A stretch of 5,036 nt of DNA from the IMG/VR virus record IMGVR_UViG_2698536676_000008, positions 1-5,036 of that record, one strand, 5' to 3'. Position numbers and translations under genes: made by a program. Shown here in pieces: positions 1 through 5,036 of this stretch (positions are counted from its first letter, which is position 1; each line of letters begins with the position of its first letter). Source of the DNA: a virus. Taxonomy: Duplodnaviria > Heunggongvirae > Uroviricota > Caudoviricetes. The notes under the pieces were generated by a model. It ran no database searches. It had not been told where the DNA came from and was given only the letters and a program-made list of their open reading frames with translations.

Positions 1-702
1 ATCAGCCAGGCTATGGCGGGAGCTGCGCCAGTAGTTACCTCTGGAAAACGAACTATCACGGCACCAAGTGATGTGCAGATTTATGACAACGGCTACAAGG
101 TGGTTACAGGTGAGGATAAGAGCTTCTTTGGTTCGCTATTTGATTCCACGGTGTCAGGGCTTAAACAGACAGGAACCGCAGTAATTCCTGCCGTTGGCGA
201 TAACCTTTCACGACTTGTTGGGGGGATTGATAGTACAGGGATATTGAACGATCTTGTAATGCAGTCTACTGGGCAGAATAGTGCGATTGCGCGAGCTATT
301 AGCCCATTAACAAGAAATGTTGGAGACTGGCTGAATGGGGGGATTCAACAAACCGCTAATAGCATTAGGGGAATAGCAACTGGTGCCAATAACGCCATAT
401 TTGGCTCTGCTTCAGCTGTGCAAGAACCTTTTCTTGCTATGCCGCCACAACTCCCTACTGTAACCGATCTCGCACGAAGCGGAATAAGACAACCATTAAC
501 TACTGACACTATAAATAACGATCCTGCTATGTTGAAGGCGCTGGATAACATCTGCTCTATCCTGAACGATCTGCTGAATGTGAACAAGAACAATACAAAA
601 GGCGATCCGGATAATGTTGTCAAAACATCGCAGCCGCAGCCGCGACCACGTGCGAGCACAACTATTAATGACCAGTCGCTGGATGCTCTGCTTGAGGATT
701 AA
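1..702 (+). CDS. Phage tail/baseplate structural protein, C-terminal portion (5' end lies outside window); function unassigned
   Basis: Frame 1 is open from base 1 with no upstream stop, so the ATG at 13 is probably internal. Stop TAA at 700-702. Gly/Ala/Ser/Thr/Asn-rich low-complexity sequence with a Pro/Gln-rich C-terminal tail (QPQPRPR). Sits immediately upstream of, and co-oriented with, the gp25-like gene, the position a spike/hub or tape-measure-type gene occupies in myovirus tail operons. Function is inferred from position only. Confidence 0.55.
   Translation: MSQAMAGAAPVVTSGKRTITAPSDVQIYDNGYKVVTGEDKSFFGSLFDSTVSGLKQTGTAVIPAVGDNLSRLVGGIDSTGILNDLVMQSTGQNSAIARAISPLTRNVGDWLNGGIQQTANSIRGIATGANNAIFGSASAVQEPFLAMPPQLPTVTDLARSGIRQPLTTDTINNDPAMLKALDNICSILNDLLNVNKNNTKGDPDNVVKTSQPQPRPRASTTINDQSLDALLED
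694..698 (+). promoter_or_regulatory. Shine-Dalgarno-like GAGGA for the CDS starting at 708
   Basis: GAGGA ends 9 nt upstream of ATG 708, inside the 3' end of the preceding CDS. Confidence 0.5.
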
Positions 703-707
703 TACTG

Positions 708-1082
708 ATGCTTTACGAAATAGACGCAAGACTTCAAACGAATGAGAGCGGTGTCATTATTGCAGAAGGAAGTACCGCAGCATGGATGGCCCGACTTGAC
801 GAGTGGCTACGAACCCCTGAAGGGAGTGTTTATGGTTTACCCTCTTGGGGGAGTCCAATGGAAGAATTTAAGCATGAACCATTCGGCTCTGAAACTTCGC
901 ACATAGTTGAAGTGGCTATTGAAGGGAGAATGATGAAAAAACTACGACAAGACTTGCCAGGTTTGGATGTGCAAGGGATTCGTTGCACATCAATTTCTGA
1001 AGATTCTTTATTAATTAGTTTTTATGCGAAAGGTGGGAGCATGGATATTGTTATGCAGAAATCAAGTGGGGTGGGCGCGTGA
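708..1082 (+). CDS. Baseplate wedge protein, gp25/GpW-like (124 aa)
   Basis: ATG at 708 with GAGGA 9 nt upstream. The segment LRTPEGSVYGLPSWGSP resembles the core of the gp25/GpW family (T4 gp25 TRKGSRPFDPEFG; P2 gpW LRTPVGSR...DYGS), recalled from memory. Small size and position directly before a large baseplate gene fit the conserved gp25-then-gp6 order. Stop TGA 1080-1082 overlaps the next start. Confidence 0.6.
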   Translation: MLYEIDARLQTNESGVIIAEGSTAAWMARLDEWLRTPEGSVYGLPSWGSPMEEFKHEPFGSETSHIVEVAIEGRMMKKLRQDLPGLDVQGIRCTSISEDSLLISFYAKGGSMDIVMQKSSGVGA

Positions 1083-2509
1083 CGATTACAGAATTACTGG
1101 ACAAATTTAACGCCAAGTTAAATGAAAATACATGGTGGTCACGATTTGTAAATAGTCAGTTTGTGCAGATGCACGCTATATTCGGATCGCAGCTTATTTA
1201 TATTGCCCGTACATTTGCAAGTCGCGGCCTCACTGAGGGACTTATTTCAACGGCAACGCGCCGCTCAAGTATTTTAGCGGTTGCTGAAGACCGTAGCTAC
1301 GTAGGGCGATTTGTTAGTGCTTCATACGGAACAACGTCTATAACAAATAAAACTGATCGGGATATTACGTTACCAGCCGGGGCTGAATTGCTTGCCAATG
1401 ACCAAACACCTTTGGCAATTATTAACAGTGTTGTAATTCCTGCTGGAGGAACTGTTTCTGGCGTAGAAACTAAACAGCATGAAGCTGTTAGCATTACGTT
1501 TGATATTGAGAAGGAAACTTTATTTCTGACATTGTTGCTTTCCAGAGAGTTAACAAAAGAAGTCTCTAGCCTGGATGTTTATGTTATTACAGATGGAGTA
1601 GAAGAAAAATGGACATATAACCCATTATTTAGAATGTCCAGAGACAAGAGTAAGCACTATTCATTGGCATATAAACCTACAGAACAACTTGGAGTCAAGT
1701 TTGGTGATGGTTCTATGGGTATGATGCCTCCAGCAGGCTGTCAGGTTCGAATCGATGTTATGGCTAGCCTTGGCGACTATACTTTGGCTGAAGGACAAAA
1801 GTTAGAACCGGCTGGAAATATCGCTCAATATGTGGAGTCACTAGAGTTTAAAACTGATTCGATCATTACCGGTGGTAGTGGTATGGAAACTACAGAAGAA
1901 ACTCGAAATCGTGCTCAGTATTATGTTGCATACGATGAACAAGTGGTATGGGGCGGTGATTATCGCCAATTCATTCAGAATGTTGTTCATGGAACTTCAT
2001 GGTTGAACGTTTGGGGCGAAGCGTTACAAGAGAAAATAACTGGGTTTGACGTTCGAAACATCAACAAAATTTTCTTTTGCGGACATAAGCCGGGTGTAAG
2101 CCAGTCTCAGCTAAAATCAGAAATACTGAAAGCTCTAGAGAATGTTCCAAATGAGTTGAACAAGCGGTTCGAGTATGTAGATACAAATGAACAGCCATTT
2201 ACTATAAATTTTATAGGTATTGCACGTAAAAATGTTCTGATAGACGATGCTCAAAATGCTATTAAAGCAGCGTTGGAAGATAATTTTGGCCGTGATTCGT
2301 CATCATTCAGTTTATTACTACAGAGTGATGATGATTCCCAGCAATGTTATGCACAGGTAAAAGTTAAGGATATTTGGCGAGTAATAGAGTCTCTGGATAT
2401 GTTTCTGTCTTACGACATAACAATACAAAATATGAAAGATGCTGTTTACTTTAATGACTTCATTTATCTTAACGTAAAATCTTCAACGTTCAGCATTTCT
2501 TACCCGTAA
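1079..2509 (+). CDS. Baseplate protein, gp6/GpJ-like (Baseplate_J-type), 476 aa
   Basis: First start codon after the in-frame stop at 1013-1015 is GTG 1079, overlapping the upstream TGA (GTGA); a purine-rich GGGGTGGG lies just upstream. The first in-frame ATG is 30 codons further in, so the exact start is uncertain. Long uninterrupted ORF following a gp25-like gene; the segment AYKPTEQLGVKFGDGSMGMMPPAGCQV is reminiscent of the Gly/Pro-rich core of baseplate J proteins (from memory, unverified). Stop TAA 2507-2509. Confidence 0.65.
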   Translation: MTITELLDKFNAKLNENTWWSRFVNSQFVQMHAIFGSQLIYIARTFASRGLTEGLISTATRRSSILAVAEDRSYVGRFVSASYGTTSITNKTDRDITLPAGAELLANDQTPLAIINSVVIPAGGTVSGVETKQHEAVSITFDIEKETLFLTLLLSRELTKEVSSLDVYVITDGVEEKWTYNPLFRMSRDKSKHYSLAYKPTEQLGVKFGDGSMGMMPPAGCQVRIDVMASLGDYTLAEGQKLEPAGNIAQYVESLEFKTDSIITGGSGMETTEETRNRAQYYVAYDEQVVWGGDYRQFIQNVVHGTSWLNVWGEALQEKITGFDVRNINKIFFCGHKPGVSQSQLKSEILKALENVPNELNKRFEYVDTNEQPFTINFIGIARKNVLIDDAQNAIKAALEDNFGRDSSSFSLLLQSDDDSQQCYAQVKVKDIWRVIESLDMFLSYDITIQNMKDAVYFNDFIYLNVKSSTFSISYP

Positions 2510-2510
2510 T

Positions 2511-2514
2511 GAGG
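2511..2514 (+). promoter_or_regulatory. Shine-Dalgarno-like GAGG for the CDS starting at 2520
   Basis: GAGG ends 5 nt upstream of ATG 2520, in the 10-nt spacer after the TAA at 2507-2509. Confidence 0.5.
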
Positions 2515-2519
2515 TTAGC

Positions 2520-3365
2520 ATGAAAGATAATTGGCTTAAGGAACGATTAACTAAAGTAAAACAGGATTCACATCTCTGGAGTGCATTTATAGACGCTTTA
2601 CAGGATGTCTGGAATGAGGCAGTAGAACCAATATTAACAAGAATAAGTAACAGAAAATCCTTCTTCACTATGGACAGTGAGGATATGGATGCCCGCATTG
2701 CTGAATACGGGCGTTTTTTCGTTATCACTGAAAAAGATAATGCCCGTAGGCCAATGCTTCTGGCGCAGCGTTTAGATGAAGTGCACTTTAAAGGTACTAT
2801 CTTGCCTATTGAGCAGACATTCTGGCGTGAATTCGGTTGTATTCCTGTTAGTTGGGAACCGCTGTATGCACCTGTAAATATAGAAAAACACCCCTATGGT
2901 TCATATTTTGCGACCGAAATAGAAATACCTACGGCACAGGCTCAATTCGGTGAGCTCTTCCTGACATCAAGGGGGCTGGTCGTTGTTGATCAGAACAAGC
3001 TATATCGCTCATATGGAGAGCAGGATAAAGAAGCCGCTGTGCAGAAATTGTTATCTGACTTCGAAACAGTAATAGCCCCTTTGTTGCCATTGCATATTGT
3101 TTTTGATGGCGTCTCGTTTCGGCTTAGTGCTGTATTCCCTGAAGTGGCAGAAATATTAAATTACCTGTCTACGGATGTTTCGGTAATTGAAGGTGTTTAT
3201 GTTACTGAGAGTATGGCTGATATGCTATCCCGTAGTGATACCTCCTGCCAGGCAGACAATATTTCTCTTAATGCCATACCGAACCGAACGGCAGAAAAGC
3301 AATTACATCTTGATGTAACCCCACTCGATGCGTGGCCTTTGGATTACCACCTTCAATCTGTTTAA
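2520..3365 (+). CDS. Putative baseplate/tail protein (occupies the position of P2 gpI / Mu gp48-type wedge component); function not established
   Basis: ATG 2520 with GAGG 5 nt upstream. 281-aa ORF ending in tandem stops TAATAA (3363-3368). Co-oriented and closely spaced within the baseplate operon. No motif I can assign confidently; the call is from synteny. Confidence 0.55.
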   Translation: MKDNWLKERLTKVKQDSHLWSAFIDALQDVWNEAVEPILTRISNRKSFFTMDSEDMDARIAEYGRFFVITEKDNARRPMLLAQRLDEVHFKGTILPIEQTFWREFGCIPVSWEPLYAPVNIEKHPYGSYFATEIEIPTAQAQFGELFLTSRGLVVVDQNKLYRSYGEQDKEAAVQKLLSDFETVIAPLLPLHIVFDGVSFRLSAVFPEVAEILNYLSTDVSVIEGVYVTESMADMLSRSDTSCQADNISLNAIPNRTAEKQLHLDVTPLDAWPLDYHLQSV

Positions 3366-3368
3366 TAA

Positions 3369-3394
3369 TTCTTCCCCCGCATTTGGGGGAAGAA
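3369..3394 (+). promoter_or_regulatory. Perfect inverted repeat / RNA stem-loop (10-bp stem TTCTTCCCCC / GGGGGAAGAA, 6-nt loop GCATTT)
   Basis: Read directly from the sequence. Starts immediately after the tandem stop codons of the upstream CDS, inside the only long (94-nt) intergenic spacer of the operon. No U-tract follows on either strand, so it is not a canonical intrinsic terminator. Confidence 0.4.
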
Positions 3395-3442
3395 CAACGG
3401 AAATCACAAACTGAGCATACTCTCCTTTGGTTCATTGCTTAT

Positions 3443-3449
3443 GAAGGGG
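3443..3449 (+). promoter_or_regulatory. Shine-Dalgarno-like GAAGGGG for the CDS starting at 3460
   Basis: Purine-rich GAAGGGG ends 10 nt upstream of ATG 3460. Confidence 0.45.
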
Positions 3450-3459
3450 CTATGTTCGT

Positions 3460-3906
3460 ATGGCTGAAAATTTAAAGGCAAGAGATGGTAACCGCCTGTA
3501 TAAGGCGCAATTACTTTCCTACTATTATTCACGCCGCGCAGAGTCGGCGATCGGCAAAGGTGCGCGTTTTGTTATCTCTAAGGCGTATTGGTGCAAATCT
3601 AGTCTGGTAACTGCTAATGGTGCAGGAGGCTGGAATATAGCGGACATTCCGCTCGATTTTAAATTGAGTGGCGCTCAACAGTTTGCTGTGTCCGATCTGA
3701 TATTGTCCAGCGTGGATGGGATTATCACGATCAATGCAGCCTTCCCTCAAGAAAGAATGCCGGATAACACGCCTTACGACTTTAACACGCTTGTGCTTGT
3801 TGATGCTGAGGAACAGGCTTTTGGTGTGCTTTGCACCCAGCAAGATACCCTCTATAAAGGTAAACGTTACAGTATTCTCATGACAATCGAGCAAGTTGAG
3901 GGTTGA
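3460..3906 (+). CDS. Hypothetical protein, probably tail fibre-associated (148 aa)
   Basis: ATG 3460 preceded by GAAGGGG. Stop TGA 3904-3906 lies 2 nt before the fibre ATG, suggesting translational coupling. Position immediately upstream of the fibre gene matches the small R-type genes that precede S in Mu/P1-like fibre operons (from memory). No recognisable motif. Confidence 0.55.
   Translation: MAENLKARDGNRLYKAQLLSYYYSRRAESAIGKGARFVISKAYWCKSSLVTANGAGGWNIADIPLDFKLSGAQQFAVSDLILSSVDGIITINAAFPQERMPDNTPYDFNTLVLVDAEEQAFGVLCTQQDTLYKGKRYSILMTIEQVEG
3898..3902 (+). promoter_or_regulatory. Shine-Dalgarno-like GAGGG for the tail fibre CDS
   Basis: GAGGG ends 6 nt upstream of ATG 3909, inside the 3' end of the preceding CDS. 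Confidence 0.55.
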
Positions 3907-3908
3907 TT

Positions 3909-5036
3909 ATGGGGGCTGATAAAACGAACAACATAATGACACTATCCTCTGGTGTCTCACAGTCGTTGCTTGCTGATGTTCAATATTTCGAACTCTATAG
4001 TAGTCTGGCTCTTAACAGAAAACTAAAAAATATTGTTTTGCCTGGCTTTTACTGTGGATTTGAACCGGTTCCCGGCACAGGGTTGAGTGTCCGCATAACT
4101 TCTGAAAACTCAGAAGGTAAAGGGGCTGCTTCAGTAGATGTAAATAATGTTCAGATATCCGTTCAGCAAATAGAAGATGTGACTGTCTCGGTAAAGGCAG
4201 GGGCTACCAACATTATTGTGCTGGAAGCCAATTTTGAACATGGTGTAAAAACGACACAGGTAGATAGCGCATCTTCTGTCAGTGCTGCAAGAATTTACGC
4301 GCGTACGGACAATACTATTGGGCAGAATCAAATTGAATTATGTCGAGTTATCGTGCCTAGCGGCGCAACGGCTGTGACTAAAGAAATGATTGTGCTTAAA
4401 TACCGGGTTAACCGGGCTGTTGGTGTCGAATTCTCTAATGAAATAAGCAGTACAGAAGAAAGAAAAGCGGCTACACCGAAAGCTGTCAAGGCTGCATATG
4501 ACCTGGCTAACGGGAAGTACACAGCCCAGGATGCAACCACGACACAAAAAGGGATAGTTCAGCTCAGTAGCGACACCAACAGCACTTCTGAAACATTAGC
4601 TGCAACTCCAAAAGCGGTTAAAGCTGCATACGATCTAGCAGCCGGAAAGGCACCATCCAATCATATACATCCCTGGAATCAGATCACTGGTGTGCCAACA
4701 GCTTCATTGACAGCGAAAGGCATCACTCAGCTCAGTAGTGCCACTAACAGCACGTCTGAAGTGCTGGCCGCTACACCGAAAGCTGTCAANNNNNNNNNNN
4801 NNNNNNNNNNNNNNNNNAAAGCTGTCAAGGCTGCATACGATCTGGCAAACGGAAAACAACCGGCAGATGCCACGCTCACTGCTCTGGCAGGACTTGCCAC
4901 TGCAGCAGATCGGTTGCCTTATTTTACCGGAGCAGACCGCGCAGCGCTGACAACCCTTACAGCTATTGGTCGCGCTATTATCGCTAAGGGCAGTATAAAA
5001 GATGTCCTCAATTACCTTGGTTTAGGAGAAGGCTCG
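3909..5036 (+). CDS. Tail fibre protein, N-terminal constant portion (P2 gpH / lambda Stf / Mu-P1 S family); 3' end lies outside window
   Basis: ATG 3909 with GAGGG 6 nt upstream. This frame was not in the supplied ORF track because it has no stop in the window. My own translation is open from 3909 to 5036 and stays in frame across the N run. It contains three copies of AATPKAVKAAYDLA(N/A)GK, two copies of KGI(V/T)QLSS(D/A)TNSTSE(T/V)L, and then GKQPADATLTALAGLATAADRLPYFTGADRAALTTLTAIGRAIIAKGSIKDVLNYLGLGEGS, which closely matches the collar segment I recall from P2 gpH and lambda Stf. Confidence 0.9.
   Translation, partial: MGADKTNNIMTLSSGVSQSLLADVQYFELYSSLALNRKLKNIVLPGFYCGFEPVPGTGLSVRITSENSEGKGAASVDVNNVQISVQQIEDVTVSVKAGATNIIVLEANFEHGVKTTQVDSASSVSAARIYARTDNTIGQNQIELCRVIVPSGATAVTKEMIVLKYRVNRAVGVEFSNEISSTEERKAATPKAVKAAYDLANGKYTAQDATTTQKGIVQLSSDTNSTSETLAATPKAVKAAYDLAAGKAPSNHIHPWNQITGVPTASLTAKGITQLSSATNSTSEVLAATPKAVXXXXXXXXXXKAVKAAYDLANGKQPADATLTALAGLATAADRLPYFTGADRAALTTLTAIGRAIIAKGSIKDVLNYLGLGEGS
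4467..4856 (+). repeat. Intragenic in-frame tandem repeats encoding the tail fibre collar motif
   Basis: AATPKAVKAAYDLA-GK is encoded at 4467-4517, 4599-4649 and 4767 onward across the gap to 4856. The longer unit with KGI-QLSS-TNSTSE-L is at 4545-4649 and 4713-4789+. The 11-mer AAAGCTGTCAA occurs at 4479-4489, 4779-4789 and 4818-4828. Confidence 0.85.
4790..4817. other. Run of 28 N (assembly/scaffold gap or masked bases) inside the tail fibre repeat region
   Basis: Direct observation. The gap is flanked on both sides by the identical 11-mer AAAGCTGTCAA, and the fibre frame is preserved across it (AAN plus 9 NNN codons, then AAA). Confidence 0.95.
5005..5030. other. Candidate Din-invertase crossover-like sequence (cix/gix/hix-type) at the end of the fibre constant region
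   Basis: TCCTCAATTACC-TT-GGTTTAGGAGAA. The right half matches the recalled half-site consensus GGTTTTNGATAA at 10 of 12 positions; the left half is weak (about 8 of 12). It encodes the conserved NYLGLGE motif. The resemblance could simply reflect coding conservation. Confidence 0.25.

Follow-up and report, generated by a model that had tools for sequence, protein, structure and literature searches.

The gap in the tail fibre gene of a P1/D6-like phage-plasmid very probably marks an assembly break in an array of 300-nucleotide repeats

The window analysed here, that is, the entire 5,036-nt stretch of the IMG/VR virus record IMGVR_UViG_2698536676_000008, constitutes the module for the baseplate and tail fibre of a P1/D6-like phage-plasmid from E. 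coli. Its closest matches are plasmids of 89–100 kb, on which the annotated products include a transglycosylase, baseplate and tail proteins, a tail fibre, a fibre assembly protein, inverted partial fibres and a recombinase (individual relatives are denoted below by L numbers). In the loci that encode the exact 476-aa baseplate protein of the window, the order of the Pfam matches is Phage_P1_Gp16 (PF26903), Phage_P1_tail_fiber_R (PF26881), Phage_fiber_2 with Collar (PF03406 and PF07484), Caudo_TAP (PF02413) and Resolvase with HTH_7 (PF00239 and PF02796). The same succession of baseplate genes, a P1 gp16-like gene, R and then the fibre characterizes the P1/D6 tail-fibre operon (R, S, U), which has the Cin-invertible C segment, and as in P1/D6, the relatives continue with an assembly gene, inverted alternative fibre C-termini and the Resolvase plus HTH_7 recombinase. 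The window holds the part of this operon upstream of the fibre and, of the fibre region itself, only the constant region and the opening 20 nt of an inverted repeat, the remainder being present in the relatives. The P1/D6 ‘tail fiber gene inversion region' has been described previously (PMC6799933). Among phages, D6 is 96% identical to window positions 4340–4489 (150 nt in the 5' part of the fibre gene), but the high-identity 300-nt array discussed below is unmatched there beyond the first motif; P1 itself is not among the megablast matches in the phage collection. The 476-aa ORF (window positions 1079–2509), a P1-type baseplate protein, has no Pfam match and is named ‘bleomycin hydrolase' in RefSeq in several plasmids and ‘baseplate protein' in others; the former name looks like a propagated mis-annotation.

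The tail-fibre gene is represented by its 5' part, the constant region, which starts with the ATG at 3909 and runs off the end of the window in an open frame (3909–5036, plus strand). This frame corresponds to the coding sequences annotated as ‘phage tail protein' or ‘tail fiber protein' in L001, L002 and L021. Given the Pfam gene order, the identity to phage D6 and the annotation of the related plasmids, the gene is an S-type fibre (P1 gpS-type, with a D6-like N-terminus), with the gap located within its constant region. The match of the window fibre fragment to PF03406 (Phage_fiber_2) is highly significant (E = 5.8e-43, 144.7 bits, three stretches before the gap), as is that of the five-unit fibre of L001 (E = 2.9e-207, 670.5 bits, 11 stretches), both well above the curated gathering threshold of 22 bits. 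One complete repeat unit of 300 nt (100 codons) is present at 4470–4769 on the plus strand, and has exact counterparts in unit 1 of L001 and in units of L008, L009 and L010. The unit consists of sub-repeat A (132 nt, 44 codons) and sub-repeat B (168 nt, 56 codons), each with one AATPKAVKAAYD motif that belongs to PF03406, so that the unit of high identity differs from that of about 35 codons assumed in the original prediction. The 3' side of the array is followed by a unique ‘exit' segment of the constant region (4838–5016, plus strand), which was delineated from the right-flank match in the relatives. Tandem Repeats Finder (TRF) detects no array in the window, because only 1.07 units stand before the gap.

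PF03406 is a phage tail fibre repeat of about 42 aa, and the presence of two such repeats in each 100-aa unit is in line with this family. The fibre of phage Mu, protein S (PDB 5YVQ and 9KI1), gives one matching stretch in the sequence search, between its residues 112–148 and residues 665–701 of the L001 fibre, which cover the last motif and the exit (E = 2e-6), and the search detected no counterpart of the amplified array in it; among the solved structures searched, none covers the 300-nt array. The 56-codon sub-repeat bears an insertion with an H-x-H motif (SNHIHPW). In T4 fibres, H-x-H motifs bind metal and, by analogy, the motif in the sub-repeat might be a putative axial metal site. The fibre repeat that underlies the gap is of an already known kind, and the gap itself holds nothing biologically new.

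The single N-run in the window consists of 28 Ns at 4790–4817 and begins within the third of the AATPKAV motifs, which have their starts at nt 4467, 4599 and 4767. The 11-mer AAAGCTGTCAA has three occurrences in the window, at 4479, 4779 and 4818, with no further one on either strand; in 200 shuffles, the mean number of matches was 0.01, and three matches were never reached. Positions 4779 and 4818 are 39 nt apart, and the fibre frame from 3909 remains open across the Ns. Accordingly, the original prediction, which placed the N-run inside the third repeat copy, pointed to the identical 11-mers on either side of it and at 4479, and held that the 39-nt spacing preserves the frame, agrees with the sequence on each of these counts. 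Only the extent of the flanking identity had to be corrected, the repeated flanks being 20 nt each. On the left, the end of contig A (4770–4789, plus strand), which is the opening 20 nt of the next unit, is identical to 4470–4489; on the right, the start of contig B (4818–4837, plus strand), corresponding to unit positions 10–29, is identical to 4479–4498. In both cases, the identity ends at exactly 20 nt, as the longest repeated suffix of contig A and the longest repeated prefix of contig B, respectively: the 21-mer at the left contig end differs by having C at 4769 versus G at 4469, and the array exit is first distinguished at 4838, by a C in place of the T of internal units. The two 20-mers 4470–4489 and 4479–4498 overlap in the 11-mer.

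The start and the end of the window also fall within repeats. The first 20 nt of the scaffold (1–20, plus strand) are common to the copies of a tandem repeat of 75 nt located upstream, in the transglycosylase (P1 Sit-like) gene; this 20-mer recurs at 75-nt spacing in L001 (five times) and L009 (twice), and is also present in L002 (three times) and L007 (once), with divergence at base 21. The 75-nt (25-codon) repeat is located at 1287–1681 in L001, and the window starts exactly 20 nt into the last copy. The number of copies varies among the relatives, whose transglycosylase products range from 1260 to 1378 aa, and in L006, a 100-N gap (4689–4788) lies about 135–235 nt upstream of the site that matches the start of the window, seemingly within the 75-nt repeat or next to it. 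A premature stop considered near window position 5 turned out to be merely a Ser/Asn change.

The scaffold ends (5017–5036, plus strand) with the opening 20 nt of the inverted repeat that belongs to a putative invertible fibre segment. This 20-mer, TTGGTTTAGGAGAAGGCTCG, occurs once per strand in L006, L008, L009, L010 and L001, whereas the 21-mer at the window end has only the homologous site in L006, L009 and L010 and is absent from L001 and L008. In five relatives, 5017 is where identity to the alternative fibre cassettes in inverted orientation starts, between TT and GGTTTAGGAGAA, which places the junction of the constant and variable fibre regions, along with the start of the putative invertible segment, at the very end of the window. 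The last 32 nt (5005–5036), which read TCAATTACC TT GGTTTAGGAGAA, are a putative cix-like crossover region, presumably similar to the cix/gix/hix half-sites, and a Resolvase plus HTH_7 recombinase gene lies downstream in the relatives. The invertible segment is a second failure point of short-read assemblies in the fibre module; in the draft genome L007, two 10-N gaps (11787–11796 and 12186–12195) lie inside it.

All four contig ends (1–20, 4770–4789, 4818–4837 and 5017–5036) therefore lie exactly 20 nt inside repeats, a regularity which suggests that the window is a whole scaffold made of two contigs from an assembly with k = 21. The 28 Ns are, with little doubt, an ordinary k = 21 de Bruijn scaffold gap in the 300-nt fibre array that hides n units, where n is uncertain and likely to be at least 1. 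The entry into the array diverges from the unit end up to unit position 1, and the exit diverges from the internal unit from position 30, so that the entry, the loop closure and the exit have 29 nt in common (unit positions 1–29). At k = 21, this shared stretch would act as a repeat node: on its way out of the unit body, a contig would stop at unit position 20, that is, at 4789, and the exit contig would start at unit position 10, at 4818, 20 nt ahead of the first exit-specific base, such that both contig ends bounding the gap would be k − 1 = 20 nt inside the shared stretch. The duplication of the 11-nt AAAGCTGTCAA would result because 2 × 20 − 29 = 11 when both ends are written consecutively, and Ns would be inserted because the node, having been placed once at 4470–4498, could not be used again. 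The passage through 4470–4498 is contiguous here, although a plain k = 21 unitig would break there as well, and the scheme assumes a single use of the node by the scaffolder; the N count of 28 has no explanation under the k = 21 model. Compared with other scaffold gaps at collapsed repeats, the contig ends that extend k − 1 nt into the repeat, the mutual duplication of the two sides and the contiguity of long-read relatives with variable numbers of units are all as usual, and k is unusually small.

If the gap arose in this manner, the true sequence would be the window minus the 28 Ns and minus one 11-mer, plus n × 300 nt. The frame would be kept at every n, and reconstructions with n from 0 to 3 all leave the ORF open. 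The shape of the graph is the same for any n, so the window itself cannot reveal how many units are hidden. With k = 21 below the shared 29 nt, a break would occur even without a second unit, and the gap alone is no proof of more than one unit. The junction of the flanks through a single 11-mer in complete relatives and the variable number of units there both speak for the original view of the N-run as an assembly gap inside a repeat with the copy number left open. The two readings offered there, namely that the scaffold ends overlap and that further units are hidden, each retain their validity, and what does not hold is their opposition as mutually exclusive alternatives, because the ends overlap in sequence whatever the value of n.

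The structure of the array is directly observed in the relatives. In L001 (plasmid NZ_CP115379.1), the 50 nt that precede the gap occur five times, 300 nt apart, and TRF reports a 300-nt unit with 5.1 copies and 99% identity; for L002 (NZ_CP022228.3), TRF reports a 300-nt unit with 2.1 copies, and the units of these two plasmids are 98–99% identical. In both plasmids, the right flank comes after the last unit, and its overlap with the left flank is exactly the 11-mer. The 219-nt right flank (4818–5036) has zero to three mismatches to the post-array sequence in L001, L002 and L006–L011, and none in L013 and L014 over the 212 and 155 nt, respectively, that precede their contig ends. A rebuilt 240-nt junction query, composed of 120 nt from each side with a single 11-mer joining them, is found ungapped at 100% identity in six complete E. 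coli records and at 98.8% or more in 14, and is covered over at least 80% of its length in 730 records. Hence, the junction that is 39 nt shorter than the window, as proposed originally, is contiguous in natural sequences. Conversely, a search for the two flanks separated by 28 bases or by 28 Ns, with a pattern that does match literal Ns, gave no matches in the metagenome, viral and genome collections. A 30-mer of the left flank alone is absent from the genome contigs and matches three other relatives among the viral contigs, and the contigs that encode the exact 476-aa protein, all of them long, include none with a gap of 28 Ns. Taken together, the junction without the extra 39 nt and the lack of any 28-spaced sequence in these collections imply that the extra 39 nt are not biological.

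The number of units ahead of this junction varies widely. Complete or gap-free relatives have from 0 to 4 extra whole units (1 to 5 units verified): direct counting gave 5, 2, 5 and 1 units for four complete records, and 3, 5 and 4 units for three gap-free assemblies. The ratio of internal AGTGCTGGCCGCTACACCGAAAGCTGTCAAGGCTGCATATGACCTGGCTA to terminal AGTGCTGGCCGCTACACCGAAAGCTGTCAAGGCTGCATACGATCTGGCAA junctions is 4:1, 1:1, 2:1, 4:1 and 3:1 in L001, L002, L008, L009 and L010, respectively. Across 225 complete E. coli records, the unit body (4499–4769) has 810 matching places, the median being 4 per genome. For 45 plasmid rows sampled at even spacing, the counts, which are approximate because they represent ‘places per record' and can exceed the true number of units, are one copy in 3 rows, two in 4, three in 7, four in 10, five in 11, six in 4, seven in 4 and ten in 2. 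Among the 11 plasmids with units at least 99.3% identical to that of the window, there are 2–11 places each, and none has a single copy.

Places mostly agree with units, but two records illustrate why the former could not simply be taken as the latter. The 10 places in L019 (NZ_CP027133.1, a linear RefSeq ‘complete genome') are five units plus an inverted duplicate of the record end; this duplicate (42820–47167), an inverted and frameshifted version of the fibre, R and baseplate region, is probably a long-read assembly artefact, and the apparent repeat count is doubled because of it. The 11 places in pGF4-B (L021, NZ_CP172219.1) are not 11 units either, as its sequence comprises 3 A and 11 B sub-repeats.

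On the basis of the distribution of unit numbers in complete relatives, it appears probable that at least one unit is hidden in the gap, single-unit fibres such as that of L017 being known among these relatives. One relative, L012, was considered and discarded as an argument for such hidden units: its array contains B-B junctions, and these are excluded by the contig end in the window. A B-B junction would be ruled out in the genome represented by the window because the contig would otherwise have halted at unit position 14.

The strongest competing explanation is that nothing is hidden (n = 0), so that the ends merely overlap, the array is limited to one 300-nt unit and the window exceeds the true sequence by exactly 39 nt. 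The 29-nt shared stretch by itself suffices to break a k = 21 graph, with no second unit being necessary, and single-unit fibres do exist, in the complete plasmid L017 and in the drafts L007, L013 and L014, although the one-unit drafts may themselves be collapsed. The small number of Ns is also nearer to the −11 expected for n = 0 than to 289; however, a gap estimate from read pairs on a collapsed unit would come out short at any n, and for this reason, the length of the N-run was rejected as a guide to n. Since a single copy is present in only 3 of the 45 sampled plasmid rows and in none of the 11 plasmids with the most similar units, a single unit is an unlikely state of this fibre, albeit one with some claim to attention.

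Two further explanations fare far worse. Were the Ns a mask over 28 real bases, the window would contain a genuine in-frame duplication of 39 nt (13 codons), with KAVKAAYDLANGK present twice; the preservation of the frame by 39 nt and the description of one sequence collection as containing a few masked stretches would fit, but the 39-nt spacing is seen in no relative, the 730 records have the junction without it, the gap-spanning scans were empty, and the limits of the N-run coincide, like both ends of the window, with contig ends predicted at k = 21, which those of an arbitrary mask would not, making this version very improbable. That the gap conceals something else, for instance an insertion sequence or another fibre segment, is scarcely credible: P1-like plasmids carry IS elements elsewhere, which is no direct support, neither contig ends in unique sequence, both being cut at the repeat boundary, and in every relative examined the flanks are separated by whole units or sub-repeats only.

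The interpretation of the N-run as a scaffold gap in the 300-nt array gains from other assemblies that are interrupted at the same place. The ENA metagenome scaffold L006 has 100 Ns in the fibre array, with flanks that extend 55 nt into the repeat, and L011 (GCA_046372325.1) has 97 Ns, with flanks about 78–79 nt into the repeat; the rule that contigs end k − 1 nt inside the repeat thus also holds in these two assemblies, at other values of k. Unlike those of the window, the contigs of L006 would not break on the 29-nt shared stretch alone. The contig of L015 ends inside the second 300-nt unit, and that of L012, within a run of repeated 168-nt sub-repeats. More generally, in 363 of the 890 collection blocks that contain the 476-aa baseplate protein of the window, the longest contig with this protein is only 2–5 kb, which fits routine breakage at these repeats.

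For the record itself, the warning that the constant region of the fibre is not to be trusted at this point was justified, the phage DNA itself having neither the Ns nor the duplication of the 11-mer. As written, the fibre gene (376 codons, with 10 X) is wrong: the 13 codons across the gap have to be deleted, and further 100-codon units may be absent. Inferences from this fibre on protein length, domain count or host range are accordingly unreliable, because of the spurious 13 codons and the units that are perhaps missing. In many public short-read assemblies of P1/D6-like phage-plasmids, the 300-nt array is the site of a break or a collapse, and fibre lengths read from drafts will be systematically too short.

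The array itself appears to be subject to rapid turnover. The units of one plasmid are 98–100% identical at the DNA level, which points to a recent amplification, conceivably via unequal recombination or slippage; in this respect, the array is unlike the old, diverged protein repeats of PF03406, with pairs of 44 and 56 codons that would have been re-amplified very recently. L008 has three units and L010 has four, with no mismatches between them over 4469 nt upstream, as anticipated by the suggestion that the number of repeats may differ among related fibres, and L012 is identical to the window across 4469 nt upstream and yet has an A-B-B-B array with B-B junctions (9692–9957). Because the arrays in these two pairs differ despite identical flanks, the number of repeats is, judging from sequence comparison, one that changes rapidly compared with point mutation. 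Sub-repeat B (168 nt) can amplify alone, as seen in L012 and in pGF4-B, where the array at 4186–6447 has the structure A-BBB-A-BBBBB-A-BBB within a 1176-aa fibre. In L020 (NZ_CP087567.1), units of 300 nt with about 98% identity (2336–4666) follow a different fibre N-terminal domain (MNDVTVVTSV...), which is presumably P1-type. The array appears to have been exchanged between, or to be common to, D6-like and P1-like fibres.

The polymorphism of the repeat number is real, but within the expectation for modular fibre shafts. The literature searched covers the inversion region, and no description of copy-number variation of the 300-nt array was found in it. Tentatively, and with considerable doubt, the array, together with the 168-nt sub-repeat, can be viewed as a fast-changing length dial for P1/D6-like tail fibres, whereby in-frame shaft segments of 100 aa (or 56 aa) would be gained and lost by unequal recombination at a higher rate than that of point mutation. 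If so, the reach of the fibre might be tuned to the surface layers of the host, complementing the Cin-driven switch of the fibre tip.
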